NCBI GenBank assembly: GCA_947061115.1
Contig: CAMSMU010000001.1
Location: forward strand, 3,361-67,360
Origin: an uncultured Clostridium sp.
Lineage (GTDB): Bacteria; Bacillota; Clostridia; TANB77; CAG-508
Length of the DNA stretch: 64,000 nucleotides
Direction of reading: 5' to 3'
In this document: positions 19,371 through 53,315 of the stretch, piece by piece
How positions within the stretch are numbered: position 1 is the first letter of the stretch
How the letters are laid out: every line of letters starts with the position of its first letter
Translations under genes and position numbers: made by a program
Notes under the pieces: model-generated
Database searches by the model: none
What the model was told of the DNA's origin: nothing
The model's input: only the letters and a program-made list of their open reading frames with translations

Positions 19371-19540
19371 TAGATACCGTTAGGGCTTATATGCATCATG
19401 CTCATCCAGTCCTGGGTATCAAAACTCTTTTGGCCCACAATATTCATCTTCGGCGGAGCACTCATAGTGTTTACCAGGTGGAAAAAAAACTAAAACTCAA
19501 AAACAGAAAAGAGCCCCTGCTAAGGGACTCCTTCTGTTTT
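19371..19540 (+). ncRNA. candidate small structured RNA (GC-rich island with its own promoter and terminator)
   Basis: Plus-strand promoter: TTGTTA (19336..19341), 17-bp spacer, TG-n-TAAAAT (19356..19364). The ~110 nt at 19380..19480 are GC-rich, unusual for this genome, with stems such as ccag/ctgg, tggg/ccca and cact/agtg. The segment ends at hairpin gagcccctgctaagggactc followed by cttctgtttt. Confidence 0.35.
19508..19540. terminator. bidirectional rho-independent terminator
   Basis: Hairpin GAGCCCCT-GCTA-AGGGACTC. It is flanked by T-runs on the plus strand and, on the minus strand, by TTTTCTGTTTTT just after the stop of the 19539..20438 gene. Confidence 0.6.
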
Positions 19541-20438
19541 ATTTATTTAATATTTTTTCTCTTAATCCATCTTCCATATTTATTTTTGTTGGTATTATAT
19601 ACTTCGCATCTATTCTATGTAATACTACATTTGTTATTGCCTTCATAGCCCTTGACCCATCAAACCATAATGGATTATCGCTATTTTCTCTTATTCTATT
19701 TAATGAAGTAATATAAGCATTTCTATCATATTTATCACTCATATCTATTGTAAGCATATACTTTTGTTTATCATCTTCATATAATTCATTTTTTATTAAA
19801 TCATATTTAGCATTATTGTACCAATATAAATGATCTCCTCCTGCAAGAATTAACAAATCACATTTAATGTTGAAATCATCTTCTATTAATGAATCTATGT
19901 ATGAATATACTTCATCAAAACTACAAGTTGGTATATCTTCTTTTAGCGTGCTAAATTTATTAGTAATATCTACAACACCAAAATTTAAATATTTTTTATA
20001 TATTATTTCTTTGTTATTTACAATTAATAATTCTGTTGAACCTCCACCGCCAATAAATATGCAAATATTCCCATTATATTCTATATTATTATAACATCCA
20101 AAAGCAGTATATACTGCTTCTTTTTCTTGTGATACAACAGATATTTTTATTTTAAATTTATCATATATGTAACTATTTATTTCTTCTAACTCTTCTTTTG
20201 TTATTTTTCTAAAAATACTGCAACCAAATACATAAACATTATTAGTATAGCTAAAAGCTTTTTCTATTTCACTACATAATTTTTCTATATCTTCACTATT
20301 AATTTTATTATATATTCCATAATTCTTTTTTAATTCTACTGTGCAAATATTTTCATATATGCTTTTTTGTTTTTCATATACGTGTGTTTTTGTATTATTA
20401 CTTCCTATTTCAATAATTGCAAATGTTGTTTCACTCAT
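19539..20438 (-). CDS. Ppx/GppA-family (ASKHA-fold) phosphatase-like protein
   Basis: N-terminal AIIEIGSNNTK and internal IFIGGGGSTELL glycine motifs, typical of the Ppx/GppA actin-like fold. Confidence 0.5.
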   Translation of the reverse strand: MSETTFAIIEIGSNNTKTHVYEKQKSIYENICTVELKKNYGIYNKINSEDIEKLCSEIEKAFSYTNNVYVFGCSIFRKITKEELEEINSYIYDKFKIKISVVSQEKEAVYTAFGCYNNIEYNGNICIFIGGGGSTELLIVNNKEIIYKKYLNFGVVDITNKFSTLKEDIPTCSFDEVYSYIDSLIEDDFNIKCDLLILAGGDHLYWYNNAKYDLIKNELYEDDKQKYMLTIDMSDKYDRNAYITSLNRIRENSDNPLWFDGSRAMKAITNVVLHRIDAKYIIPTKINMEDGLREKILNK

Positions 20439-20553: not shown

Positions 20554-21765
20554 CTACATATATAAAGTGCCTCTCATGCCAATGTTACTACCAGAACTGA
20601 TGGTACTGCCGTAATCACGACTGCCCGCTGGGTAGTAAAGAGCAACAATGTTGTAATAGCCACCACGCTGAACGCAACGAAAGACAGAGTCATAGGTCTC
20701 TGTTGTCCATTCAAAAACATTTCCTCCCATATCATATATGTTTTTTACTGCGTGATATCCTGTATTTTTTAAGCCTCCATTTCCTGAATAATTTCCGCCT
20801 TCACTATTTACTGCATATGTTCCCTCTATAAACTGTAAGGCTGTATCCCATGCATAACTACTACATAATTTTGACTTTCCTGTATACATTCTTTCTGCTA
20901 TAGTTTTCGCTTCATCTCTTGTTATCCAATTATATACTGGTAAATTTTCTTTTATTCTTGCAGTTGCGATTATATTTCCTTCACTACTTTCGTTTCTTGA
21001 ACTATCTGTTCCAACTTCGTATCTACCTAAATAATACCCTCCATATTTTTGTATACTTATTCTTTCATCTTCTGGTAATGCTTCATGATAATAACCTGAT
21101 GTATTATTTACTTTTTGTATCTTATAACTTCCATCTGCATCTTTTTCATATTCTCCATTTGATACTAATACAAATGATTGCCTTCCACTCCAATCATCTC
21201 TTGTAAATGCATATCTATCATATTTTAATGTATTATTTTCTCCATCTAATGAGCATGGAATCCATACAAATTGATTTCCTACTGTATCATTGTTATTTGC
21301 ACTTACATCTTCTATTACTATTCCTTCTTCTACTGTTTGATCAGGGTTTATTACTTTAAATCCTGCTGGAACTACTACTCTATTTCCATTTTTATCTGTT
21401 GTTTCTGTATTTGTTCTTTCTTCTCCTGTTATTTCTTTTAATGGATTTTTATTATTTCCTCCATTTCCATCTAATCCTAAATTCTTTAATGTTTCATCAT
21501 AAGTATTTGCAAAACTCTGCATTTCGCTTGCTTCATTTGCTTCTGCTTCCCTCCATGTATTCGCCGCATTTTTGGCTCTTGTAAATAACCCATTATTGCC
21601 TACTGTTAGGCTTATAGCTATTCCTGCTAATATTAATAACACTATTATTGTTACGACTAATGCTATCAATGTTATACCTGCGGGCGACTGATAGTCGCCC
21701 ATACGAACGTTTTTTATATTCTTTACACCTTTTACCACTTTATTTATCCTCCTTTGTTTTTGCAA
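20554..21765 (-). CDS. prepilin-like (N_methyl-type helix, Ala at +5) protein with C-terminal FGE-sulfatase-like domain
   Basis: GDYQSPAG|ITLIALVVTIIVLLILAGIAI, then a linker, then a domain with YDMGGNVFEWT and RGGYY (FGE/SUMF1-fold motifs). An alternative GTG start at 21738 follows RBS AAAGGAGG. Confidence 0.6.
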   Translation of the reverse strand: MQKQRRINKVVKGVKNIKNVRMGDYQSPAGITLIALVVTIIVLLILAGIAISLTVGNNGLFTRAKNAANTWREAEANEASEMQSFANTYDETLKNLGLDGNGGNNKNPLKEITGEERTNTETTDKNGNRVVVPAGFKVINPDQTVEEGIVIEDVSANNNDTVGNQFVWIPCSLDGENNTLKYDRYAFTRDDWSGRQSFVLVSNGEYEKDADGSYKIQKVNNTSGYYHEALPEDERISIQKYGGYYLGRYEVGTDSSRNESSEGNIIATARIKENLPVYNWITRDEAKTIAERMYTGKSKLCSSYAWDTALQFIEGTYAVNSEGGNYSGNGGLKNTGYHAVKNIYDMGGNVFEWTTETYDSVFRCVQRGGYYNIVALYYPAGSRDYGSTISSGSNIGMRGTLYM

Positions 21766-22386: not shown

Positions 22387-23248
22387 CTATTTTAATGTTG
22401 CTAATCCTATAAAACGTACTCCTTGATAAGATACATTACCTACATTTGCTTCAGCACATTTGCTAGTAAATCGCCCATATAGTATTCTCTCATCTTGATA
22501 ATAATCACAAATCCCTTTAGTAATTGAATATCGAGAGTCAACTGTAGCTATATTATATGCATAAGCCTCTGATACCAAAAAATCTATTTTATCGATTTCA
22601 TTTGGATAATTCATATATAAGCTATATTTACCTTCTTGTAAATTATAACCTGGAGTCATATATGAATAAAATAGACACTTTTTTCCACCTAATTTATATA
22701 TATAGAATTTTCCATGCCCATTGTTACCGATAACTTCCTCTAGTTTCTAATTGTTCTAGTGTCCTATTATCCTTTTCATTCATTTCATTTTGTATATTTT
22801 CATATTTTTCATTAAGATTAGTATATTTATTCTCTAAATCTGCTAATTTGTTCATTAGTTCTTCGATATCAGCATTTGTATTTGTTTCTGTATTACCTTC
22901 TATCTTTATCTCATTTCCAAACTGTGTTAACATTTCTATTTCATTTTCTTCAGCTTGTTTATATTTTTCTACTGCTTTTTTTGCTCTTGATATTATTCCA
23001 TTATCTCCTAAGGTAAAATTTATTGTTATACCTGCCAATATTAATAAAACTATTATTGTAACAACCAATGTTACTAATGTTATACCTGATGGCGACTGAT
23101 AGTCTCCTCTACATTCGTTCTTTTTATTCATCTTTATTACTATATTAGATAATCTTCCACCTTCTCTACTTTTTAATTTATTATTAAAAAACTTTTTCTT
23201 ATAGTTAGCTTCTTTTGCTACATACATCCTACTTTCCTCCTTTTTCAA
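22387..23248 (-). pseudogene. prepilin-like protein with coiled-coil linker and C-terminal HG-YIY domain; +1 C frameshift joins ORFs 22724..23248 and 22387..22659
   Basis: N-terminus RGDYQSPSG|ITLVTLVVTIIVLLILAGITI. The coding strand reads TTATCGGTAACAATGGGC; without the C it continues GSYGNNGHGKFYIYKLGG into the downstream ORF. The inserted base is at plus 22727..22729 (ccg). Confidence 0.6.
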
Positions 23249-24452: not shown

Positions 24453-25739
24453 CTATTTCTTTTTTAGAAATTTGTAATTACCTTTAAAATGTAATAATGT
24501 AAATATTATGGCTACTACTGCACATATAATTACTATACTAAAAATTATCCATATATATTTATTAGTTTTGCTTTTTTCATTTTGATTTATATTTTCATCT
24601 TCTAATTTTATTTTTTCGATTTTATATGCATTTTCTAATAACTTTTGATTTGTATTTTGTTCCTCTATATATTTTTTCTCATCTTCAATATTTCTTTTAT
24701 ATACTTCTATTTGATATTTTTTATTACTTATTTTATCTGGAGATGTTACTAATATTGTTACTAAATTATTTCCTTCTTTTAAGTTGTCTTTTCCATTTAT
24801 TTCTACTACAGATTGTTCATTTTCTGGAATTGCTAAAATATTAATACTGTTTTTATCATTTGCTATTTCTGCTTTATAATTAACTTGGTTGACATCAAAT
24901 GGTACATTTAATAAAATATTTTCTATTGCTAATATTTCTAAATTTGTATTAGATAATTCAATATTATCTGTTTTTGTTACATTAATATTATAAATATTTT
25001 TTTCACTATTATCTTCTGAAATTACTTCAATAGATATTTTATTCAATCCTTTTTTTAATTCTTTATTTCCATTTATATTTACTGTTGAATTAGGATTTTG
25101 AGCAATTGCCAATACTTCTATATCTTTTATATTTTCTTCAGTTGTCAAATAATACTCATACACATCTGAATTAAATACTGGATGTGTTCCCTCTATATCA
25201 AGTCTTAAATCTTTTAATTTTGCATTACTTATTTCTGTATTAGTTCCTTGCTCTTCTTCTAATTGCTTTTCTAACTTAGTTTGCTCTCTTCCTATTTGTA
25301 TTTGTTTCTCTTTAAAATCAATTTCTATTAATTCTTCTTTTGCATTATAAAATTCTCCTTGTACATTGAAAGTTGCTAATCCTTCGTCCTTTGCTCTGAA
25401 TTTTAATTTTATAAGTTCTCCTTCTTTTCCTTCTAATCCACCTGTGTCATCATGCCAAACGAACATTACTCTATCTTCTATTACATTTGTATTTTCAATA
25501 TTTGATACATATTCAAATTTTAGTTCATCATAATATATAGATATGCTAAATGCCCCTGTTTTTGTATCTTTTAAATTTATAGTTAATTCTATTTCTTCTC
25601 CCTTTTCTATTATATCTTCATTACTTTCTATATACACTATTCCTTTATTTGCTGCATACGTATAAGTATTTGCACAAAATATTAGCATTATAATATTTAT
25701 TAAAATTATTAATTTATTCTTCATGTGCTGTTCCTCCAT
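24453..25739 (-). CDS. cell-surface protein: signal peptide, cohesin-like domain, two cadherin-like beta-sandwich domains, C-terminal TM anchor
   Basis: Signal peptide, then a cohesin-like segment ELTINLKDTKTGAFSISIYYDELKFEYVSNIE. Two repeats follow, of the form LSN..L..L.I......F....Y......V.V, and the protein ends at IWIIFSIVIICAVVAIIFTLL. Confidence 0.5.
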   Translation of the reverse strand: MEEQHMKNKLIILINIIMLIFCANTYTYAANKGIVYIESNEDIIEKGEEIELTINLKDTKTGAFSISIYYDELKFEYVSNIENTNVIEDRVMFVWHDDTGGLEGKEGELIKLKFRAKDEGLATFNVQGEFYNAKEELIEIDFKEKQIQIGREQTKLEKQLEEEQGTNTEISNAKLKDLRLDIEGTHPVFNSDVYEYYLTTEENIKDIEVLAIAQNPNSTVNINGNKELKKGLNKISIEVISEDNSEKNIYNINVTKTDNIELSNTNLEILAIENILLNVPFDVNQVNYKAEIANDKNSINILAIPENEQSVVEINGKDNLKEGNNLVTILVTSPDKISNKKYQIEVYKRNIEDEKKYIEEQNTNQKLLENAYKIEKIKLEDENINQNEKSKTNKYIWIIFSIVIICAVVAIIFTLLHFKGNYKFLKKK

Positions 25740-25743
25740 TAAT

Positions 25744-27993
25744 CTATTGTTCTATTTGTTTTAAATTTAATATATGCCTTTGTATTAATAGTAAATCTAC
25801 TGATGTTGGATTTTTTCCGTCCTTATTTATATTAGAAGCTTTTTTGTATATTTGTTTTAATGGCTCTATTTGTAATATATGACGTTGCAATACTAATAAG
25901 TCTACACTATTAATTTTACCATCACCATTTGCATCACCATATACAATAATTTGATATTGTCTAATAACTTTCCCATCTTCCTTAATTCTTATTTTACTTC
26001 CCGTTCCTACAATACCTGTATCCTCTATCAATTCATTTTTCTTATTTACTATTTCTATTTCTAAATCTGTAATAATTTTATCTTTTACATCTAAAACTGT
26101 ATTGCTAGAATACTCTATTCCGCTAATTTCAAAACTATTTACTTTAAGTGGATTTTCAAAGTAAATTTCTGAATCATCCATTTTTCTTACAACATTTACT
26201 GTACATTCTGCTTTTATATCACTATTTTCGTTTGAAGTCACAGTTATTTTTGTTGTACCTTCTGATTTTGCTGTTATAATTCCATTTTGGTCTATATCTG
26301 CTATACCTATGTCTGAACTACTAAATGTATAGGTATTATTATCTGAATCTTCTGGATAAATATATGCATTTATTTTAAATTCATCTTCTATTTGCATATA
26401 AATTTCTTCTTGATCTAATTCAATGTTAGTAACTGGTGTATATACTTTTATTTTAATTTGACTTTGTACATTGTTTTCCATAGCTTTAACAGTAATTGTG
26501 GTTTCTCCTGAAGAAATTGCCTTAATATTTCCTTTTTCGTCTACTGTTGCAACATTAGGATCACTTGAGGTAACTCTAATTTGATTATCTTTTGCTTCCT
26601 CTGGTAATATTTCTATTTCTAATTTTTTTCTTTCTCCTTTTTTTAATATATTATTGTCTAAGTTAATATTAATTGCTTCTATTTTAGCATTTGGAATTTC
26701 TGTTACATATGATCCGAAAATATATCCAATAATACCATTTTCTAATATTATTTTATCCCATCTTTCTCCTGATTGAATTCCCCTTCCTATTCTTACCATT
26801 TTATCTTCTTTATTTATTGTTGTAATTATTTCATATGATGTTGATGGTCCTGTTCTAATATTAACATTACTACCATTACAATAAGCTCTAGTATTATCTG
26901 TTACAAAATCATTAGAATTTATATTAGGATTTTTTGTAGGTGTAGATGGCATATTATTATATACAGGTATTATAAATGTAATAGGAGTTTCTAATAATCC
27001 ACTTTTTTGATATCCATTATATATTGACTTTGATTCACTAAAAGGTGCTAATACGTTTGTCATATATTGATGTGTAAATAATGTTCCATTTCTATCATCA
27101 TTTACATCAAACTTTTGAAGATAAATTGTATTTTGTCCTACATTTATATAACTAGATCCTATAAATATTCCTCCACCTGTTATTGACCTTTCTTTTGTAT
27201 TCCATGGAATTAAATATTTATCTTTAACTGATTGACTTGCACCTTTTCCATCTCTTGCATATTGAAGACCATTTTTTATTGCTCCCATTGGTTCTGCTGA
27301 ACTTGTTGCTCCAATATTATAAAAGTTATAAAGTCCCTTAAAGCCTTCTACATTACCACTAATGGAACTATGAGATAAGAATGGACCTACTTCTTGTTTA
27401 ATACGAGAGGCCAAATGATATGGACTAACTCTCGATACTTGTCCACCTCTTAAAATCAAATCCGAATATTTTTCATTCATGTTTATATTATTTCCATAAG
27501 CATCTAAATACGATACTTTTCTATTATAAAATTCTGTTCCATATAAAATTTTTTCAACACTGTCTAAATTATTTGTATGCTCTTCATATGATAATGCTTC
27601 AAATTGAAATAATCGTACTTCATTTAAAAAATTTCTTGGATCCATACAAAATTCTACTGCCTCTCTTGAACTATCTACCCATCCACTATCTACTTCAACA
27701 TTATATTGTCCTGGTGTAGTATTTTTCCAACTATCTGAATAATTTTTAGGTACTAAATTTTTTCCAAAAATGTTTTCTTCATTTATTACATAATTCCAAT
27801 CAAGGTTTGTATATAAAGCTTTAAATTGCCAATTTGGATGTTTTTTGGATATTTCCTGTAAATATGGTCTATAGCTACTTGGGAAATTTTCTATTCCATA
27901 TAATTTGTCAGAGGCATTAACTTTTATATTTAAAATTATTAATATTACTAATATTATCATTATAATAATTATATTTATTTTTTTATTTTTCAT
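25744..27993 (-). CDS. peptidoglycan hydrolase (GH73 glucosaminidase-like) with SH3b, two Big_2 domains and a C-terminal type I dockerin
   Basis: Dockerin duplicated segments GDANGDGKINSVDLLVLQRHIL and NINKDGKNPTSVDLLLIQRHIL. Two Ig-like Big_2 repeats (ITVKA..., ITVTS...). N-terminal signal and glucosaminidase-like catalytic region. Confidence 0.6.
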   Translation of the reverse strand: MKNKKINIIIIMIILVILIILNIKVNASDKLYGIENFPSSYRPYLQEISKKHPNWQFKALYTNLDWNYVINEENIFGKNLVPKNYSDSWKNTTPGQYNVEVDSGWVDSSREAVEFCMDPRNFLNEVRLFQFEALSYEEHTNNLDSVEKILYGTEFYNRKVSYLDAYGNNINMNEKYSDLILRGGQVSRVSPYHLASRIKQEVGPFLSHSSISGNVEGFKGLYNFYNIGATSSAEPMGAIKNGLQYARDGKGASQSVKDKYLIPWNTKERSITGGGIFIGSSYINVGQNTIYLQKFDVNDDRNGTLFTHQYMTNVLAPFSESKSIYNGYQKSGLLETPITFIIPVYNNMPSTPTKNPNINSNDFVTDNTRAYCNGSNVNIRTGPSTSYEIITTINKEDKMVRIGRGIQSGERWDKIILENGIIGYIFGSYVTEIPNAKIEAININLDNNILKKGERKKLEIEILPEEAKDNQIRVTSSDPNVATVDEKGNIKAISSGETTITVKAMENNVQSQIKIKVYTPVTNIELDQEEIYMQIEDEFKINAYIYPEDSDNNTYTFSSSDIGIADIDQNGIITAKSEGTTKITVTSNENSDIKAECTVNVVRKMDDSEIYFENPLKVNSFEISGIEYSSNTVLDVKDKIITDLEIEIVNKKNELIEDTGIVGTGSKIRIKEDGKVIRQYQIIVYGDANGDGKINSVDLLVLQRHILQIEPLKQIYKKASNINKDGKNPTSVDLLLIQRHILNLKQIEQ

Positions 27994-28003
27994 ATCTACC
28001 TCT

Positions 28004-28636
28004 TTAAATAACTTCTCTAGCTTTAACTATTGTTCTCTTACTTGAATCATTTGTACATGTAATTAATGTTGTTTCTCTTCTTCCTTCTGTTGCTTGTGAT
28101 AAACAATCTATGTTTTCTGGAGGAACAACATAAATATTATAAATCTCATATTCAACTTTTCCTATATTACGATCAGAAATTGTCAATTTATCTCCAACAT
28201 TTAACTGTTTTAAATTATAAAACATATTTTTATTTCGTGGTGCATTGTGTCCTGCAACACATAAATTTCCTATTTTATTTGGGTCTGCTCCCCAAAATTT
28301 AGCCACAGATTTATTAAGTGAATCCTCTGTATATTCTTCTAATATATATGTTTCAAGGTTTATTTGAGGAATTACTAATTTAGCTGATACTTTATACCCT
28401 CTATATTCTTCTATTATTTCTTCTTTAGGGTATTCTTTTTGTATTACTTCATTATTTTCTTCAATTTCATTTTCTACATTATTCATTATGAATAAATTTT
28501 TCATAGCATTTTGTGATGATTCCCCTATATCAGGTACTTCATTTTTAGCATCTCTATATATTTCTAAACCTATCCATATTATAAAAATAATTATTATCGG
28601 AATTAAAATATAATTTATATTTTTCTTTTTTATCAT
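28004..28636 (-). CDS. sortase
   Basis: N-terminal TM anchor, His motif LCVAGHNAP, Cys motif TLITCTND and a downstream Arg; 210 aa. Confidence 0.7.
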   Translation of the reverse strand: MIKKKNINYILIPIIIIFIIWIGLEIYRDAKNEVPDIGESSQNAMKNLFIMNNVENEIEENNEVIQKEYPKEEIIEEYRGYKVSAKLVIPQINLETYILEEYTEDSLNKSVAKFWGADPNKIGNLCVAGHNAPRNKNMFYNLKQLNVGDKLTISDRNIGKVEYEIYNIYVVPPENIDCLSQATEGRRETTLITCTNDSSKRTIVKAREVI

Positions 28637-28674
28637 TTTAGTAAATATCCTTTCATAAAACTTAAAATCTATGT

Positions 28675-28700
28675 AAATGCGGACTTTGCAGTCCGCTAAA
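28675..28700 (-). terminator. hairpin terminator after the cohesin-LPXTG gene
   Basis: gcggactttgcagtccgc, a perfect 7-bp stem, at 28679..28696. Confidence 0.4.
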
Positions 28701-28717
28701 TTACAGAAATGTTCTTA

Positions 28718-29758
28718 CTATTTTTTCTTTGTTATGCTATAAGCACTTATTCCTACTAAACCTACTAAAACTGCTACTATTGGTATATAAATATTGCTAC
28801 CTGTTTTTGGTAATGTTGTAGGTTCTGTTTCTTCTGATGGATTTTCTGTTGGTGTATTTTCTACTGGTGGTTCTTGTTCATCAGGATCTTGTGCTGGTGG
28901 TGTTACAGGTGAATGTTCTTCTAATACTGCAAAATTAAATTCTTTTTCTGCTATTACACTATCACTATTATCTCTATCTATTAATTTTAAGGTAATAGTA
29001 TAATTTCCTTGTTCACTAAACATTGCTCTAGTTTGTAAAATTTGCATTACATCTTTTCCACCTATTGCAAATCCTTGGGCGTCTCCCCAACCACTTTGGA
29101 TAATATCATGTTCTAAGTCATTTTCATCATTTGCTAATAATTGTACTGTTGCTCCAGTAGGTGCAGTATATTCTGCAACTAATCTGGCATGGTTATAATA
29201 TCTACCCATTGCTGAAGAATAAGAAAGTGTCATTTCTTTTTCTTCTCCTTTTACTATTTCTCCTGTATATTCTAATTTTAATTCATAATCTTGATATTCT
29301 GGTTCTACTGTTACATTTTTAACAATTGGTGTTGTAATATCATCATATGTTACAGATGCATCAGAATTTGCTAATCCTTCTGCTGTTATAGTAAATTCTG
29401 TTGGATTAGATGTAGTAATCCCTGTTTTTGCATTAAATTTAATTGACATATTTGCTCTTGGATTTGTTCCACCTGTTGCATCATAATAAGTTACTCTTAC
29501 TTTATCTGCTGTGTCATTAGCTGTTCCACCATCTACTGATGCATATTCAAAAAGATTATCATCATAAGCAATATCAAATGTGTATGCACCTAAATCTTCT
29601 CCAAAATTTATTGTAACTTCTACTTCTTCTCCAGGTCTAACTATAGTTTTACTTGTATTAATATCTATACTATCTAATGACGCTGCATAAGTTCTAGTTG
29701 AGAAAATTATTAATGATAGCACTGCTAAAATTGAAAAAATATTAATAATTTTTTTCAT
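28718..29758 (-). CDS. LPXTG-anchored cohesin-domain surface protein
   Basis: Signal peptide, a cohesin-like N-terminal domain (GEEVEVTINFGEDLGAYTFDIAYDDNLFEYASVDGG), a Pro/Glu-rich stalk, and LPKTG plus hydrophobic segment plus KKK at the C-terminus. Confidence 0.7.
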   Translation of the reverse strand: MKKIINIFSILAVLSLIIFSTRTYAASLDSIDINTSKTIVRPGEEVEVTINFGEDLGAYTFDIAYDDNLFEYASVDGGTANDTADKVRVTYYDATGGTNPRANMSIKFNAKTGITTSNPTEFTITAEGLANSDASVTYDDITTPIVKNVTVEPEYQDYELKLEYTGEIVKGEEKEMTLSYSSAMGRYYNHARLVAEYTAPTGATVQLLANDENDLEHDIIQSGWGDAQGFAIGGKDVMQILQTRAMFSEQGNYTITLKLIDRDNSDSVIAEKEFNFAVLEEHSPVTPPAQDPDEQEPPVENTPTENPSEETEPTTLPKTGSNIYIPIVAVLVGLVGISAYSITKKK

Positions 29759-29894
29759 TACAAAATCCTCCTTTTTTCGATTTATGTTTTTATTATTTGA
29801 CTTTTTAAAATTTATTATGCATCAATATCATTTACAATTTTTTCATTTTCAATTTTGTTCAAGATTTGCAAAATTTTTTTAAAATTGTAAAAAA

Positions 29895-29932
29895 TATAAA
29901 AAACACTGCAAATTAATGCAGTGCTTTTTCTT
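29895..29932. terminator. bidirectional terminator
   Basis: Hairpin CACTGCA-aattaa-TGCAGTG with a T-run after it on the plus strand and AAAAAA before it, which gives a T-run on the minus strand. Confidence 0.55.
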
Positions 29933-29975
29933 GACATTCTACTTTATGAATTCAGAAAGTGATTATAGAACATTA

Positions 29976-30671
29976 TTACTTGTTTGACATTATGTAATAA
30001 GCAATCGTTTTAATAAATTCTGAGGATGTAGGATTTCCTTTATCAGGTGATATTGTACTTCCAAAAATTTCATTTACAATATCCATTCGATTTATATTCC
30101 ATGCAGTTATTATTGCACATCTTATTAGCCGTTCAACTGCTGCAGGAGTTGTATTATATTTTTTTGCTATAGCTGGATACAACTCTTTTGTAGGTGATAA
30201 CATTTCTTTTTTACACCTAATTATAGCTTCTATTAAGTACTTATATCCATTAAGATATACTGGTATCCCCAACATATGCAGATATCCTATTACTTCACGC
30301 TCCTCTATTTTTTCTTCATCTGTAATCTGCATATCCAGATTTACACGTTCGGCAATCAATGCAATGAATTCTTCATTTTTTGGAGTTACATAATTTTCGG
30401 ATACCATATATCCAAATATATTTTCCAACTTTCCTGTCCAATCCATCACATCTCTTAGCTGCTTACGCATTGTGCTTTGTATGTCTGCAACTCCATGTTT
30501 CTTTGCTATTTTTTTATAGATGTCAATTGCTGACTTTGATTCTTTATTTAAGTACATTATAATTGCTTCTTTAAAATACTCATATGACTTATTTTTATGT
30601 GGTATACCTATCATCTGAAGGTACTTTTCTATTAATACTTCTGTTGTTAATTCTTTTTTCTCATTTGTCAT
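29976..30671 (-). CDS. tandem Spo0A C-terminal (DNA-binding) domain protein with no receiver domain
   Basis: Two repeats match the Spo0A_C signature: IGIPHKNKSYEYFKEAI..IYKKIAKKHG and LGIPVYLNGYKYLIEAI..LYPAIAKKYNTTPAAVERLIRCAIITAW..NPTSSEFIKTIAYYI. Confidence 0.6.
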   Translation of the reverse strand: MTNEKKELTTEVLIEKYLQMIGIPHKNKSYEYFKEAIIMYLNKESKSAIDIYKKIAKKHGVADIQSTMRKQLRDVMDWTGKLENIFGYMVSENYVTPKNEEFIALIAERVNLDMQITDEEKIEEREVIGYLHMLGIPVYLNGYKYLIEAIIRCKKEMLSPTKELYPAIAKKYNTTPAAVERLIRCAIITAWNINRMDIVNEIFGSTISPDKGNPTSSEFIKTIAYYIMSNK

Positions 30672-47810: not shown

Positions 47811-48007
47811 AAAGATATTATTAATATGTTCTCTTATTGAATATTTGTAGAACTGTTGTTTGTATTCTATATTATATTTATCCACTTGTCAATCCTTTCT
47901 TTAATTTTATCAAACTTGCAGTTTTTTATCACTTATCATATAATTGGAACATATAATATATATGATTATATTGTTATATAATTAATACTCTATAAAAGAG
48001 GTGTTTT

Positions 48008-49045
48008 ATGAAAAAATATAAATTAGCATTAGTTGGTGCAACTGGTGTTGTTGGTAGAATGGCAATTCAGGTTTTGGAAGAAAAAAACTTGCCAATAAGT
48101 GAATATGTATTCTTTTCTTCTAGAAGATCTGCTGGTCAAAAACTAAATTTTAAGAATAAAGAATATGTAGTTAGAGAGCTTACCGAAAATTCATTTGACG
48201 AAGGTTTTGATTTTGCTATATTTTCTGCTGGTGGAGATACTTCTAAAAAATATTCACCTATTGCTGCAAAACATAATTGTATAGTGGTAGATAATAGCAG
48301 TGCCTTTCGTATGGATGAAAATGTTCCATTGATAGTTCCAGAAGTAAATTTTGATGATGTAAAAAAACATAAAGGTATTATTGCTAATCCTAATTGTTCT
48401 ACTATTCAAGCTGTTGTTCCTTTAAAACCTTTAGATGATAAATATATTATTAAAAGAATTGTTTATTCTACTTATCAGGCTGTTTCTGGTGCTGGTAGAG
48501 ATGGTATCTATGATTTAGAAAATGGCATCAAAAACTTTAAGGAAGGAAAAGATATTAATATTGCATATACTAATACATATGATTTAAAAAAATTTCCATA
48601 TCCTATATTTAACAATTGTCTTCCACATATTGATGTGTTTTTAGATAATGGATATACAAAAGAAGAAATGAAAATGATTAATGAAACTAGAAAAATACTA
48701 AATAAGCCTAATCTTCCTATTACTGCAACTACAGTTAGAGTTCCTGTTATTAATTCTCACAGTGAAAGTATAAATTTAGAATTTGAAAATGATTTTGATT
48801 TTGATGAAGTTAAAAATTTATTAAAGAATTCTCCTGGAGTTATTGTTGTAGACGATATTTCTTCTAACAAATATCCTATTGCTACAAATGCTTCAGGTCA
48901 TGACGAAGTTTTTGTTGGAAGAATTAGAAGAGATGAAAGTGTTAAATATGGATTAAATTTGTGGGTAGTAGCTGATAATATTAGAAAAGGTGCTGCTAGT
49001 AATGCAATTCAAATTGTTGAAAAAATGATATTACAAGGTAAATAA
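48008..49045 (+). CDS. asd: aspartate-semialdehyde dehydrogenase
   Basis: N-terminal NAD-binding VGATGVVGR, catalytic Cys in IANPNCSTI, His in AHDEVF-like region; 345 aa. Confidence 0.9.
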   Translation: MKKYKLALVGATGVVGRMAIQVLEEKNLPISEYVFFSSRRSAGQKLNFKNKEYVVRELTENSFDEGFDFAIFSAGGDTSKKYSPIAAKHNCIVVDNSSAFRMDENVPLIVPEVNFDDVKKHKGIIANPNCSTIQAVVPLKPLDDKYIIKRIVYSTYQAVSGAGRDGIYDLENGIKNFKEGKDINIAYTNTYDLKKFPYPIFNNCLPHIDVFLDNGYTKEEMKMINETRKILNKPNLPITATTVRVPVINSHSESINLEFENDFDFDEVKNLLKNSPGVIVVDDISSNKYPIATNASGHDEVFVGRIRRDESVKYGLNLWVVADNIRKGAASNAIQIVEKMILQGK

Positions 49046-49072
49046 AAGGGGCGATTAATCGCCCTTTTTTCT
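49045..49072. terminator. bidirectional rho-independent terminator
   Basis: GGGGCGATTAATCGCCC followed by TTTTTT. Confidence 0.75.
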
Positions 49073-49086
49073 AGCATTCTTATGTA

Positions 49087-50682
49087 TTACATATTTGGTG
49101 TTAATACTATTCCTCCACTTGTGCTTACATTTACTGATATACCATTTTGAGTTGGTATTGTTGTATTTTGATCTGCTGTTATATTATCTACATTATTAGT
49201 AACTTCATTACTTAATACTTCATTTTCTGTTGCATTAGTTATAGTACCATTAACTACTGTTTGATTAGTTACATCATTAGTAATTTCATTTGTAGTAATA
49301 TTTGATGTATTATTTGTATTTAACATATTAGATGTATCATTTTCATCTTGTTCATCTAATTTATATACATTGCACACATAATCTAGGACTTCTGAGTTAA
49401 TATCATCTGGTATTATAGTATCTTCATTTGATAGTATAAATTCTATAAATATATCGTCTTCTGGTAATAATACAAAATAGCAACGTTCTATTGATGTACT
49501 ATATACTAAATCTAAATATGCATAGTAAGATCCATCTTTTAATGTAAAATTACTTGTTCCTAATTCTACAGCTGTATTTGCATCTGCTTGTGATGAAAAT
49601 TGATTATATAAAAATGTAAATAAGCTTGATCTTCCATTTGCCATTGTAATGTCAAATCCTGAATTAGCTAAGTTTTCTAGAACCTGTGCATATATTAATT
49701 TATATTTTTCATTATAAAGTGCTTTGTCTGTTTCATTTAATGTCCACATTGATGAATTATAATCAAATCCATAATCTTTGTAGAAGTTATAATATTCATA
49801 AGAAGCTTGAATATCTGCTACTTGGTTTCCTGTGTTGTTATTTGTTGCTGGTTTTTTAGCAAACATAGGCATAAGTAGTATTGCTCCTACTATTAATGCT
49901 ATAACAATTACTATTATTATTGCTAATATTACAATTGTTTTATTTCCTTTTTTCTTAGTTTTGTATGGGCTTTGGTAATTTTGTTCTTGATTTGGTTGAT
50001 TTACATTATTATTAAATCCATTTTGCATCATTGGATCTTGATATCCCATATTTCCTTGATCTTGATAGTTCATATTGTTATCAAATCCATTTTGTGCCAT
50101 TGGATCTTGATATCCCATATTTCCTTGATCTTGATAGTTCATGTTGTTATCAAATCCATTTTGTGTCATTGGATCTTGATATCCCATATTTCCTTGATCT
50201 TGATAATTCATATTGTTATCAACTACATTTTGTGCCATTGGATCTTGATATCCCATGTTTCCTTGATCTTGGTAGTTCATATTATTATCAACTACATTTT
50301 GTGCCATTGGATCTTGATATTCTACATTTCCTTGTTCTGAATAATTCATATTATTATCAATAACATTTTGTTCTGATACATCAGGTACTTCATTAACTTC
50401 CATATTATTTTGCATTTCGTTACCACCGCTTAATATTTGGTTTGTTACCACATTAGTATCAGCAGTTTCTTCTACATTACTTAAATCAAAAAGATTAAAC
50501 GCTTCTTCTGGTTCTTGTACTCCTTGATTTTGATCTGTTACTAAATTATTATTTTCCATATTTAAATCTTCATTCTGAAAATAAGGATTATAATATGGAT
50601 TTTCTTGATTCTCATTACCAGGATTTACATTATTTGCATTTTCATTATTATTTAAGTTCCCTAAATTTTTATTTTCATCCAT
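49087..50682 (-). CDS. single-pass membrane protein with N-terminal Q/N/M-rich tandem repeats
   Basis: Five ~24-aa repeats (NMNYQDQGNMGYQDPMAQNVVDN) encoded by ~72-bp tandem DNA repeats at ~50000..50360. They are followed by TM IVILAIIIVIVIALIVGAILLMPMF and an extracytoplasmic C-terminal domain. Confidence 0.55.
   Translation of the reverse strand: MDENKNLGNLNNNENANNVNPGNENQENPYYNPYFQNEDLNMENNNLVTDQNQGVQEPEEAFNLFDLSNVEETADTNVVTNQILSGGNEMQNNMEVNEVPDVSEQNVIDNNMNYSEQGNVEYQDPMAQNVVDNNMNYQDQGNMGYQDPMAQNVVDNNMNYQDQGNMGYQDPMTQNGFDNNMNYQDQGNMGYQDPMAQNGFDNNMNYQDQGNMGYQDPMMQNGFNNNVNQPNQEQNYQSPYKTKKKGNKTIVILAIIIVIVIALIVGAILLMPMFAKKPATNNNTGNQVADIQASYEYYNFYKDYGFDYNSSMWTLNETDKALYNEKYKLIYAQVLENLANSGFDITMANGRSSLFTFLYNQFSSQADANTAVELGTSNFTLKDGSYYAYLDLVYSTSIERCYFVLLPEDDIFIEFILSNEDTIIPDDINSEVLDYVCNVYKLDEQDENDTSNMLNTNNTSNITTNEITNDVTNQTVVNGTITNATENEVLSNEVTNNVDNITADQNTTIPTQNGISVNVSTSGGIVLTPNM
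49995..50360 (-). repeat. tandem ~72-bp coding repeats, 5 units
   Basis: Repeated ggatcttgatatcccatatttccttgatcttgatagttcat... units; these produce the spurious antisense ORFs. Confidence 0.7.
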
Positions 50683-50868
50683 AGTTTTTTTATTCTCCCT
50701 CCGTGAATTTTACTTTATTATAAAATAAAAAAATATTTTTTACAACATTATGGCAAAAAAATATTTAAAATTTATTAAAAAAAATTTAAATATTGATATT
50801 TCCGTTTAATTATTATATAATTGTTAACTATAAGAGGTTATTTTTCCTCAAGAAAGGAATGAAATTAA

Positions 50869-52257
50869 ATGAATTATACTTTGATTAGAGATTTATATAG
50901 AAAAACTGAAAATTATGTAAATAAATATATTTGTGTTTCTGGATGGGTAAGAACATTACGTAGTTCAAAGTCTTTTGGTTTTATTGAATTAAACGATGGA
51001 TCTTTTTTTAAAAATTTACAAATTGTTTTTGATGATTCATTAAATAATTTTGAAGAAATTACTAAACTATCTATTAGTTCTTCTTTAATTATTGAAGGAA
51101 CTCTTGTAAAAACTGAAAATGCTAAGCAACCTTTTGAAATTCATGCTAAAAGTATTAAAATATGCAATTTAGCTGATACATCTTATCCTATTCAAAAAAA
51201 GAATACATCTTTTGAGTTTTTAAGAACTCAAGCTCATTTACGTGCAAGAACAAATACTTTTAATGCTGTTTTTAGAGTTCGTAGTTTATTATCTTATGCA
51301 ATACATAAATTTTTTCAAGAAAAGGGATTTGTATATGTACATGCTCCTATTATAACTGGTAGTGATTGCGAAGGCGCTGGTGAAATGTTTCAAGTTTCTT
51401 CTTTTGATTTTGAAAATATACCACTTGAAAATGGAAAAGTAGATTTTTCTAAAGACTTTTTTGGAAAAAATTCTCACTTAACTGTTAGTGGTCAGTTAGA
51501 GGCTGAAACTTATGCATTAGCATTTAGAAATGTTTATACTTTTGGTCCTACTTTTAGAGCTGAGAATTCTAACACTGTAAAGCATGCTGCTGAATTTTGG
51601 ATGATAGAACCTGAAATTTGTTTTGCTAATTTAGTAGATGATATGAATTTAGCAGAAGACATGGTTAAATATGCTATTTCATATGTATTAGAAAATGCAC
51701 CTGAAGAAATTGAATTTTTCAATAAATTTATAGATCAAGGTTTATTAGATAAATTAAATATAACTGTTAAAGAACCTTTTGCTAGAGTTACTTATACTGA
51801 TGCAATTAAAGAACTAGAAAAATACAATGATGAATTTGAATATAAAGTATCTTGGGGTGTAGATATTCAAACAGAACATGAAAGGTATTTAAGCGAAAAA
51901 ATATTTAAAAAACCTGTTTTTGTTACTGATTATCCAAAAGACATAAAAGCTTTTTATATGAAACAAAATGATGATGAAAAAACTGTTGCCGCTACTGATT
52001 TACTTGTACCAGGTATTGGAGAGCTTATTGGTGGAAGTCAAAGAGAAGAAGATATTGATAAACTAAAAGCTAGAATGAAAGAATTAAATCTTGATGAAAA
52101 AGATTATTGGTGGTATTTGGATCTTCGTAAATATGGTAGTTGTGAACACTCTGGATTTGGATTAGGTTTTGAAAGATTAATGATGTATGTTACTGGTATT
52201 CAAAACATACGTGATGTTATACCTTATCCACGTACACCTAAAAATTGTGAATTTTAA
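50869..52257 (+). CDS. asnS: asparagine--tRNA ligase
   Basis: Class II aaRS motifs ([30 protein letters not shown]); N-terminal OB anticodon-binding domain; 462 aa. Confidence 0.9.
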
Positions 52258-52282
52258 AAAGAGGCATAGCCTCTTTTTTACT
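52255..52282. terminator. bidirectional terminator shared by asnS and spoIVB
   Basis: AGAGGCATAGCCTCT flanked by T-runs on both strands. Confidence 0.7.
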
Positions 52283-53315
52283 CCATCATCATGTCTGCAA
52301 ATATTGCGTATCCTTCTGTTGGTGAATTTAATAATACATTTGTTATTGCACCTATAAATTTATTATTTTGTATTATTGGTGTACCACTCATTCCTGGTAT
52401 TATTCCGCCTGTTTTATTAATCAAATTTTCGTCTGTTATTTCTATTAACATACTTTTATTATCTTTTGAATTTTTATATATTTTCTTTATTTTTATATTA
52501 AATTCTTCTACTTTTTCATTCTCTACTTGACAATATATTTTTGCATCTCCTGTTTTTATTTCATTTCTGTTTGCTACTGGCACTTCTGGTAATTTAATAG
52601 AGCTTATAAATTCTAAGTTAGTTACTTTTCCATAAATTCCTATCTGCGAATTTCTTTCTATCTCCCCTATTTTTTGTCCATCATCTATTGTTCCTCTTAT
52701 TTCTCCTGCTCTTCCTTTAACACCTTTTACAATTGATACAATTTGCGTTGTTACTAATTCTCCATTTGATATATTTAGTAAATTTCCTGTATCTATATCT
52801 GTTATTCCATGTCCTAAAGTTGCAAATTTTCCTGTAGCCTGTTCATAATATGTTAATGTGCCTATTCCTGCTGCTGCATCTCTTACCCACAGACCTAACA
52901 TATATGTTCCTTCTCCTACTTTAACTGGTGTTATTTGTGTATATATTGTCTCTCCATATCTTTCATATTTTACAGGGATTTCTTTTCCTTTACTATTATT
53001 TACTTTATTTATTAAAGATTCTGTATTGCTAATTTCTTCTCCATTTATTTCTTTTATCGTATCTCCTTCTTTTATTCCAGAATTCTTATATGGTACATAT
53101 TTTTTTCCATCTTCATCTTCTACTTCTGACATTCCAACTACTAGAACACCATTAGTGTATAGTTTTAGTCCTATTGTTCTACCTATTGGATTTACATATC
53201 TATCAGTTTTAGCATTTACAGTTTGAAAATATTTATCGCTTTGTATACTTAATAAATTCATATATAAAAATAAACACACTATTATTAAACTTATAGGTAA
53301 AATTTTTTTCTTCAT
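52278..53315 (-). CDS. spoIVB: stage IV sporulation protein B (S55 peptidase with PDZ domain)
   Basis: Signal anchor, PDZ domain (GDTIKEINGEEI), and S55 peptidase region with GTLTYY..GHGITD and IPGMSGTP (catalytic Ser). Confidence 0.8.
   Translation of the reverse strand: MKKKILPISLIIVCLFLYMNLLSIQSDKYFQTVNAKTDRYVNPIGRTIGLKLYTNGVLVVGMSEVEDEDGKKYVPYKNSGIKEGDTIKEINGEEISNTESLINKVNNSKGKEIPVKYERYGETIYTQITPVKVGEGTYMLGLWVRDAAAGIGTLTYYEQATGKFATLGHGITDIDTGNLLNISNGELVTTQIVSIVKGVKGRAGEIRGTIDDGQKIGEIERNSQIGIYGKVTNLEFISSIKLPEVPVANRNEIKTGDAKIYCQVENEKVEEFNIKIKKIYKNSKDNKSMLIEITDENLINKTGGIIPGMSGTPIIQNNKFIGAITNVLLNSPTEGYAIFADMMME

Follow-up and report, generated by a model that had tools for sequence, protein, structure and literature searches.

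Wall hydrolases are known to be placed by choline-binding, CWB2, SLH and LysM modules, by FtsEX and by the SagB-SpdC complex, and how Gram-positive anaerobes place these potentially lethal enzymes is poorly understood beyond a few model organisms. Among proteins that hold enzymes at the cell surface, cohesin proteins with an LPxTG signal or a C-terminal transmembrane (TM) helix form a recognized class of scaffoldins (PMC11557425), the classic sortase-anchored example being ScaE of Ruminococcus flavefaciens, which is attached covalently via its LPXTG motif (PMC13463774). Dockerins have also been described on wall hydrolases: dockerin-bearing lysozyme-like and other wall-hydrolase proteins occur in rumen metagenomes and R. 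champanellensis (PMC6487960, PMC6403190), a "lyticome" has been proposed in a review (PMC6403190), and R. albus strains list GH73 in a dockerin-centered table of carbohydrate-active enzymes (PMC4081043). The single cohesin-dockerin pair of the non-cellulolytic gut Firmicute Ruminococcus bicirculans is associated with a GH73 enzyme, according to a sentence in PMC4611034 citing Wegmann et al. 2014. Here we analyzed a 64-kb stretch of DNA from an uncultured Clostridium sp. (contig CAMSMU010000001.1; hereafter the window), in which four adjoining genes, referred to as the cassette, encode a wall-anchored cohesin protein, a sortase, a predicted peptidoglycan hydrolase ending in a dockerin, and a membrane-anchored cohesin protein. 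On balance, we think that this operon probably tethers a peptidoglycan-cleaving enzyme to the producer's own envelope through a cohesin-dockerin contact. A literature search retrieved no paper characterizing such a system, the pair of hydrolase and membrane cohesin, the gene fusions reported below, or a dual-anchor operon with its own sortase.

All four open reading frames (ORFs) were found at exactly the coordinates that a preliminary description of this DNA had given for them (Table 1; coordinates are positions in the window, and the four cassette genes are on the minus strand). Successive genes lie 81, 10 and 4 bp apart. A consensus scan placed a terminator-like hairpin at 29898-29929 (-), assigned to the gene preceding the cassette. 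Given the small gaps and the hairpin upstream, the four genes look like one transcription unit; since promoter-like hexamers accompany the hairpin in the same intergenic region, the cassette probably has its own promoter. An inventory of cohesins and dockerins over the entire window found one dockerin and two cohesins, all of them in the cassette.

A scan of GTDB species genomes detected a relative of the hydrolase in at least 571 genomes, and the best 80 were analyzed as loci. These best 80 relatives were 48-77% identical to the hydrolase, nearly all over the full length including the dockerin, and came from metagenome-assembled genomes of human, mouse, chicken, rabbit and deer gut, including Clostridium sp. 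CAG:273 and Candidatus Merdicola. Gene order was conserved among these uncultured low-GC gut Clostridia, the four-gene order being intact in 43 of the 80 loci, and most of the other loci resembled truncated contigs or split ORFs; in eight, however, some 6 kb of sequence was available upstream and contained neither the LPXTG cohesin nor the sortase. When only loci with enough neighboring sequence were counted (the synteny denominators 73, 69 and 72), the membrane cohesin protein lay downstream of, or was fused to, the hydrolase in 73/73 loci, and the LPXTG cohesin and sortase lay upstream in 58/69. The flanks, by comparison, were unrelated between genomes: a fifth linked gene was sought among the flanks of 82 loci and none was found, the commonest flanking family occurring in 16. 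Furthermore, three species from rabbit gut encoded hydrolase and membrane protein as a single ORF of about 1163 amino acids (L060:2467-5955, L066:5986-9477 and L080:5890-9378), in which the GH73 enzyme with its terminal X-module and dockerin (X-Doc) was joined in frame to the cohesin, Cadherin-like and TM parts, with loss of the cohesin signal peptide. These fusion loci retained the upstream LPXTG cohesin and sortase. Relatives of the three non-sortase proteins numbered hundreds to thousands, all from uncultured Clostridia, and bore only such public names as hypothetical, "Ig-like" or "SH3 domain-containing" proteins.

The duplicated type I dockerin that had been proposed for the hydrolase was borne out by a match to Pfam Dockerin_1 (PF00404) over the complete model (positions 1-57 of 57; E=4e-13). 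In phmmer searches it matched the type I dockerin of Xyn10B (2ccl_B, 6.8e-7; 1ohz_B, 1.2e-6) and the dockerins of CelS and CelD. A canonical calcium loop was defined as 12 residues, EF-hand-like, with D/N at positions 1, 3, 5, 9 and 12. The D/N ligand pattern of loop 1, DANGDGKINSVD, was canonical and nearly invariant; loop 2, NINKDGKNPTSVD, had 13 residues, with a conserved Lys/Asn-Pro insertion present in 28/28 aligned orthologs. The helices of the two repeats, LLVLQRHIL and LLLIQRHIL, were nearly identical, and the pattern S-[VI]-D-L-L-x-[LI]-Q-R-H-I-L was almost invariant in both repeats across 66 loci, so that the internal symmetry of the dockerin would be compatible with a dual binding mode. 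Mean pairwise identity was highest for the dockerin (72% across these 66 loci), followed by the LPXTG cohesin (62%) and the membrane cohesin (37%). The X-like module of about 78 residues that directly precedes the dockerin was conserved in the clade (hidden Markov model [HMM] "xmod") and had no match in Pfam or the PDB. A segment resembling it also precedes the dockerin of an unrelated protein downstream of the cassette at one locus (L041:12164-14242, +), which carries the dockerin toward its N terminus (residues ~125-180), with fn3/Ig-like repeats after it; this arrangement recalls X-dockerin dyads.

Of the two cohesin proteins, the LPKTG-anchored one was predicted correctly as to both of its features. 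Its N-terminal domain scored 25.4 bits against Pfam Cohesin, for which the cut-off is 24.1 bits, and its C terminus passed the LPXTG anchor model TIGR01167. The family profile of this protein matched the NagJ cohesin of Clostridium perfringens (E=0.003) and scaffoldin cohesins. Its sorting signal consists of LPKTG, SNIYIPIVAVLVGLVGISAYSI and TKKK, is encoded next to the sortase gene, and was retained as LPKTG or LPQTG in 68/72 orthologous ORFs. In the window this was the only real ORF with a sortase-signal C terminus, the other match to the sorting-signal pattern being an 81-aa antisense ORF within the sortase gene. The middle domain of the protein, which was assigned to no family, is highly conserved, with invariant GWGD.QG and IDRDNSD motifs and a faint cadherin/PKD-like similarity.

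For the second, 428-aa cohesin protein, whose ORF is started at the second Met in public gene calls (25724; 423 aa), the evidence came from families and structure. The Cadherin-like repeats and the TM anchor of the preliminary description were found, whereas the window copy had no match to Pfam Cohesin (PF00963), and a PDB search with the single sequence returned nothing. Among 27 orthologs, 8 matched Pfam Cohesin at E<=0.01 (best, 4.8e-8), and the family profile matched the NagJ cohesin of C. perfringens. HMMs of the two N-terminal cohesin domains of the cassette matched each other at about 1e-10, with 25-29% identity across the full domain, by which the two appear to be clear paralogs over the whole domain. 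The AlphaFold2 (AF2) model of residues 27-165 was all-beta, with a predicted local distance difference test (pLDDT) score of 89.1, and its top 44 Foldseek matches in the PDB were all cohesins (E down to 5e-9 for 2jh2; TMq 0.63-0.76 for most, 4dh2_A reaching 0.76), led by 2jh2 and the type I cohesins of C. thermocellum and C. acetobutylicum. As modeled, the N terminus of this protein is unambiguously a cohesin jelly roll. The preliminary description had made its reading depend on both N-terminal domains scoring as cohesins; what was found is that the wall protein passes by a margin of 1.3 bits and that the 428-aa copy lacks a Pfam match and has the cohesin fold.

Such marginal Pfam Cohesin scores, a degenerate second dockerin loop and Cadherin-like domains, which are common in adhesins, fit a looser association, in which the cohesin-like proteins would be adhesins or structural proteins sharing an operon with the hydrolase, and the dockerin would be vestigial or a structural EF-hand-like element. 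We consider this very improbable. Strong purifying selection acts on the dockerin, whose two helices are nearly invariant; the fold of the cohesin is unambiguous, the four-gene synteny persists despite rearranged flanks, and fusions of hydrolase and cohesin exist.

The sortase was likewise recognized by its Pfam family (PF04203) and by the presence of the His, Cys and Arg motifs (Table 1), and TLxTC was kept in 73/74 sortase orthologs. Its NCBIfam scores of 64 bits for class C, 48 for class E and 46 for SrtD were all far under the class cut-offs of 140-165 bits. The nearest solved structure was SrtD of C. perfringens (4d70, E=7e-17), followed by 2kw8. This enzyme presumably attaches the LPKTG protein to peptidoglycan.

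Within the 749-aa hydrolase, the SH3b and Big_2 domains noted earlier were detected by Pfam as a single SH3_3, the only wall-binding module found, and two Big_2 domains, and the signal peptide probably ends between VNA and SD. Its proposed GH73-like identity held by profile and fold and not by the Pfam family named for checking it. Pfam Glucosaminidase (PF01832) did not match the hydrolase at E<=0.1 or any of 54 diverse relatives of the catalytic module at E<=0.001; PF01832 was therefore dropped as the criterion for GH73 and replaced by profile and fold evidence. A single-sequence search matched the hydrolase to S. aureus Atl over residues 252-343 only. The profile built from diverse relatives (A6), however, matched GH73 structures over most of the domain, namely SagB (6fxp, 1.5e-16; 6u0o, 1.9e-16), Atl (6fxo, 9e-14), AtlE (4pi7, 1.9e-13) and Acp (5wqw, 1.8e-7), and Foldseek with the AF2 model of the catalytic domain (pLDDT 62) gave matches at E<=1e-3 only to 6fxo, 6fxp and 6u0o. 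In the profile alignment, Glu201 (SRIKQEVG) aligned with the Glu of the SagB motif LLETG, and it was invariant in close orthologs, in the 54 diverse representatives and in A6 (alignments A3, A5 and A6); we take the Glu of this ETG/E-x-G motif to be the catalytic general acid of GH73. The motifs YNFYNIGA and HQYMTN parallel those of Atl. Relative to the GH73 structures, the catalytic module has an extra N-terminal extension of about 100 residues. Its family comprises 2,685 clusters at 50% identity, none of the 54 sampled reaching PF01832. Taken together, the hydrolase is predicted to be a GH73-type endo-beta-N-acetylglucosaminidase. Its nearest relatives of solved structure (SagB, Atl, AtlE and Acp) were deposited as autolysins or glucosaminidases, the title of 6u0o placing SagB in a membrane complex, and SagB, Atl and Acp are endogenous autolysins.

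Table 1. Features of the cassette and of the intergenic region upstream of it (window coordinates; residues refer to the encoded protein)
Feature	Position	Strand	Basis or remark
Upstream intergenic region	29759..29975	-	Terminator-like hairpin and promoter-like hexamers; consensus scan only
Wall-anchored cohesin protein, 346 aa	28718..29758	-	Pfam Cohesin, TIGR01167
Cohesin domain of LPXTG protein	residues 25-150, 29309-29686	-	After signal peptide
Middle domain of LPXTG protein	residues 151-285, 28904-29308	-	No family assigned; followed by Pro/Glu/Thr-rich linker
LPKTG motif	28799-28813	-	C terminus of LPXTG protein
Hydrophobic tail of LPXTG protein, KKK end	28721-28798	-	After LPKTG
Sortase, 210 aa	28004..28636	-	PF04203, E=1e-23
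Sortase N-terminal TM helix	28556-28612	-	
Sortase His in AGHN	28244-28255	-	
Sortase Cys in TLITC	28055-28069	-	
Sortase Arg in KAREV	28010-28024	-	
Secreted peptidoglycan hydrolase (predicted), 749 aa	25744..27993	-	Pfam, profile, fold
Signal peptide or signal anchor of hydrolase	27913-27993	-	Hydrophobic N-terminal segment
GH73-like glucosaminidase module	residues 28-350, 26944-27912	-	Profile and fold
Hydrolase Glu201	27391-27393	-	GH73-motif alignment
Hydrolase SH3_3	26704-26871	-	Pfam
Hydrolase Big_2 domains (two)	26194-26676	-	Pfam
X-like module	residues 605-682, 25948-26181	-	Unassigned; directly before dockerin
Dockerin	residues 685-742, 25768-25941	-	Dockerin_1, 49.7 bits
Dockerin loop 1, DANGDGKINSVD	25900-25935	-	Canonical
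Dockerin loop 2, NINKDGKNPTSVD	25795-25833	-	One-residue insertion
Membrane-anchored cohesin protein, 428 aa	24453..25739	-	AF2/Foldseek, Pfam Cadherin-like
Cohesin of membrane protein	residues 27-160, 25260-25661	-	After signal peptide
Cadherin-like domains (two)	residues 165-345, 24705-25247	-	Pfam, 1.7e-18; followed by charged, probably helical linker
C-terminal TM helix of membrane protein	24486-24557	-	Short basic tail after helix

The association of hydrolase and membrane partner reaches well beyond the clade of the window. Among the 54 diverse relatives sampled for the catalytic module, 13 bore dockerins, of quite different sequences; these 13 belong to Oscillospiraceae/Ruminococcaceae, Saccharofermentanales and unclassified Clostridia. 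In all seven distant dockerin-bearing relatives inspected (7/7), the gene immediately downstream encodes a signal peptide followed by a Cadherin-like domain and a C-terminal TM helix, and four or five of the seven partner proteins had a detectable cohesin at the N terminus. No sortase or LPXTG cohesin was found near the seven loci, which are surrounded by unrelated housekeeping genes. Among dockerin-less controls, P0419 had no partner and P0376 had one. A comparison set of 80 metagenome loci was then obtained by a scan with dockerin-less SH3-repeat hydrolases as queries; none of its 80 hydrolases carried a dockerin, and 53 had a Cadherin-like domain of their own. The expectation that the partner cohesin occurs only where the hydrolase bears a dockerin failed here, as cohesin-like partners accompany dockerin-less hydrolases (for example, L095:8914-10194 and L144:7255-8277, within the dockerin-less series L095-L174). 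Pfam detected Cadherin-like domains in 31/31 of these partners and Cohesin in 7/31, a PDB profile search with them returned cohesins as 13/13 matches, and none of the dockerin-less loci had a sortase. A subgroup of them (e.g., L144, L166 and L172) encodes a cohesin-like domain and a TM helix with no detectable Cadherin-like domain.

Several observations weigh against tethering by a cohesin-dockerin contact. At 66 of the 72 dockerin-less loci a same-strand ORF lies downstream, 63 of them with a TM helix, 46 with a Cadherin-like domain and 37 with a cohesin-like N terminus; adjacency thus speaks for a partnership and is no proof of contact between cohesin and dockerin. In the dockerin itself, loop 2 is a non-canonical calcium loop, with Asn at position 3 in 32 of the 66 loci and Arg there in 25, and because of the insertion and of the Arg at this ligand position the second calcium site would be doubtful. 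The membrane cohesin is poorly conserved (37%, versus 72% for the dockerin), and in neither cohesin is the binding sheet (beta 8-3-6-5) more conserved than the opposite sheet (0.54 versus 0.55 in one paralog and 0.76 versus 0.74 in the other, by a crude test without model coordinates). Finally, the AF2 model of the catalytic domain, at a pLDDT of just 62, gives the enzyme assignment secondary support only. For the preliminary description, which had seen in this locus a minimal cellulosome-style tethering system, the outcome was mixed. What stood is a closely packed unit, conserved as a block amid changing flanks, which holds the sole cohesin/dockerin set of the window and is fused in some genomes; to be set against it are the atypical loop 2, a hydrolase-partner pair that exists without a dockerin, and the composition of the cassette, which is not that of a cellulosome.

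These data raise the question of whether the hydrolase and its membrane partner could cooperate without any cohesin-dockerin contact, the cohesin-like domain of the partner binding another hydrolase domain (e.g., the Cadherin-like one) or a wall polymer, and the partner acting as a general receptor or regulator. The dockerin of the window's clade would then bind only the LPXTG cohesin or something encoded elsewhere. That dockerin-less hydrolases keep a downstream and often cohesin-like partner, and that 53 of the 80 have their own Cadherin-like domain, would agree with this, as would the higher conservation of the dockerin and the LPXTG cohesin than of the membrane cohesin and the correlation of pairwise identities with those of the dockerin (Spearman 0.48 for the LPXTG cohesin versus 0.28 for the membrane cohesin, confounded by phylogeny). 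Nevertheless, the seven distant dockerin-bearing lineages have only the membrane partner nearby, the eight in-clade loci without LPXTG cohesin and sortase retain X-Doc, and paralogy between the two cohesins is clear along the entire domain. We regard cooperation without contact as unlikely. The same difference in conservation hints that the dockerin of the window's clade may be received mainly by the LPXTG cohesin; the eight in-clade loci and the distant lineages that keep a dockerin with no LPXTG cohesin nearby run counter to this.

The dockerin-less pairs indicate that the gene pair is older and broader than the dockerin. Pairing of the hydrolase with a membrane partner is widespread across Clostridia, and the module in the window is a derived form of this broader two-gene system. 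It is possible, and we hold it as a tentative view, that the membrane protein with its outward-facing cohesin-like domain serves a large clostridial family of GH73-like autolysins as a general partner that needs no dockerin, be it as receptor, ruler or regulator. Dockerin plugging and the sortase-anchored cohesin may then be later reinforcements of an older pair for cell-wall maintenance. If so, the cohesin fold would serve widely in the housekeeping control of wall hydrolases, and such pairs would be a candidate evolutionary source of the cohesin-dockerin systems later found in cellulosomes.

For the cassette, we favor tethering through cohesin and dockerin, which could operate as follows. 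The hydrolase would be exported with its SH3b wall-binding domain, Ig-like spacers and C-terminal X-module and dockerin. Two receptors would await it: the LPKTG cohesin protein, fixed covalently to peptidoglycan by the operon's own sortase, and the membrane protein, anchored by its C-terminal helix, with two Cadherin-like domains projecting the cohesin outward. Most likely, the dockerin would plug into the membrane cohesin, the wall cohesin, or both, so that the enzyme keeps a set position and depth within the wall and does not diffuse away, while SH3b and the Ig-like spacers give the catalytic module access to glycan strands at a constant depth. If SagB, Atl and Acp are a guide, its role might be daughter-cell separation or the trimming of glycan strands. 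The hydrolase and the membrane partner would be the old and widespread core, the dockerin being present in only some lineages and the LPXTG cohesin and sortase being additions of this clade.

The target assumed here is the producer's own wall. Alternatively, the tethered hydrolase could be a surface weapon or scavenging tool, of the "lyticome" type, directed against the walls of neighbors or free gut peptidoglycan. Dockerin-linked lysozymes and D-Ala-D-Ala carboxypeptidases in rumen metagenomes have been read as means of attack and defense (PMC6487960), and a review has proposed the "lyticome" (PMC6403190). When the flanks of the 80 loci were inspected, additional dockerin ORFs encoded GH73-dockerin paralogs, an amidase and an fn3 protein. 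At one locus, a second dockerin-bearing wall hydrolase adjoins the cassette (L072:3214-4950, +, just upstream): it combines Amidase_3, two Big_2 domains and a C-terminal Dockerin_1, and its dockerin also matches the dockerin HMM of the cassette family, so that such a dockerin occurs on a second class of wall hydrolase in one genome at least. The weapon or scavenging reading would also accord with the detection of a single SH3_3 as the only wall-binding module. We judge it quite unlikely, however, because the membrane-proximal partner is universal and the fusion would hold the enzyme at the producer's membrane; moreover, the pair occurs across many lineages amid housekeeping genes with no immunity-like gene consistently linked, and the nearest characterized GH73 enzymes are endogenous autolysins.

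The neighbors of the cassette are ordinary chromosomal genes. An origin from a phage or mobile element was rejected: matches to PHROG were limited to generic Ig-like and weak lysin-domain families, the neighbors are housekeeping genes, and G+C content is uniform (about 22-30%, low throughout the window). The window is minus-strand apart from two genes (48008-49045 and 50869-52257), which account for a local flip of GC skew at 48000-52300, and an Rfam scan of the whole window found no RNA families. Directly upstream of the cassette, 29976-30671 (-) encodes a 231-aa protein with two tandem Spo0A_C domains and no receiver domain (Pfam E=9e-44 in two stretches; TIGR02875 under its cut-off), and a 91-aa ORF next to it, at 30864-31139 (-), contains the first half of a further Spo0A_C domain (E=2e-8). 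To our knowledge, duplicated receiver-less Spo0A C-domains are unusual. A sporulation link through these genes is unsupported, because the flanks differ between genomes. On the other side, two pilin-like proteins and an ATPase-fold protein form a cluster (20554-21765, 22724-23248 and 19539-20438, all -). Two of the cluster's proteins have an N-terminal hydrophobic segment like that of type IV pilins or pseudopilins (…SPAGITLIALVVTIIVLLILAGIA…), one of them with a weak FGE-sulfatase-like match, and the pair adjoins the ATPase-fold protein, which is Ppx-GppA/PilM-like.

If tethering through cohesin and dockerin is correct, many uncultured gut Clostridia would place their wall hydrolases by a protein plug borrowed from, or ancestral to, cellulosomes, the socket being in the membrane and, in this clade, joined by another that is fixed to the wall and has a sortase of its own. 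Cohesin-dockerin interactions would thereby have a housekeeping role in non-cellulolytic bacteria, represented by small modules that can be expressed. The analysis also flags a large GH73-like family (the 2,685 clusters above) as missed by current Pfam models and as named in public entries only by "Ig-like" or "SH3 domain-containing".

By its membership, the cassette is no cellulosome: its cohesin proteins are monovalent, a predicted peptidoglycan hydrolase is the sole dockerin cargo in the window, and neither the cassette nor its immediate surroundings showed an enzyme for plant polysaccharides. In its working, the system would resemble a minimal scaffoldin for anchoring whose cargo is a wall hydrolase. 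As in the monovalent anchoring scaffoldins (ScaE, which binds an X-dockerin, and OlpA and OlpC of C. thermocellum, with type I cohesins), one wall-attached cohesin would receive a dockerin partner, and the cohesins of OlpC (4dh2) and OlpA (3ul4) were among the best structural matches of the membrane cohesin; as in X-Doc dyads, the hydrolase has an extra module directly before its dockerin. Unlike those systems, the cargo is a peptidoglycan hydrolase and not a scaffoldin or a plant-cell-wall enzyme, no multi-cohesin scaffoldin belongs to the cassette, no carbohydrate-binding module or cellulase lies in or beside it, and wall anchor, membrane anchor and dedicated sortase are encoded in one operon.

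The best match in sequence and structure for both cohesins was the NagJ cohesin of C. perfringens (2jh2/2o4e/2ozn). In that species, cohesin and dockerin modules of glycoside hydrolases join secreted enzymes that degrade host glycans to one another. The likeness is a cohesin-dockerin system outside plant-biomass degradation, in a non-cellulolytic Clostridium; the differences are that the cassette cohesins reside on dedicated anchor proteins and that the predicted cargo acts on bacterial peptidoglycan. With R. bicirculans, compared by description only, the cassette shares a cohesin-dockerin pair associated with a GH73 enzyme, and the one sentence in that source mentions neither a sortase nor a second cohesin. 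Proteins of the lyticome type also carry a dockerin on a wall-hydrolase domain, but they are members of large cellulosome repertoires and are read as weapons, whereas in the window the cassette hydrolase alone carries a dockerin; it comes with dedicated anchors and forms part of a conserved core of two genes. Finally, S. aureus SagB-SpdC (6u0o) offers an analogy to the pair of hydrolase and membrane protein, in that a membrane partner positions a GH73 glucosaminidase. SpdC, a polytopic membrane protein, is unrelated to the cassette partner, whose ectodomains are of the cohesin and Cadherin-like types and whose membrane part is a single TM helix, and the catalytic module of the cassette differs from GH73 autolysins by its N-terminal extension and by escaping PF01832.

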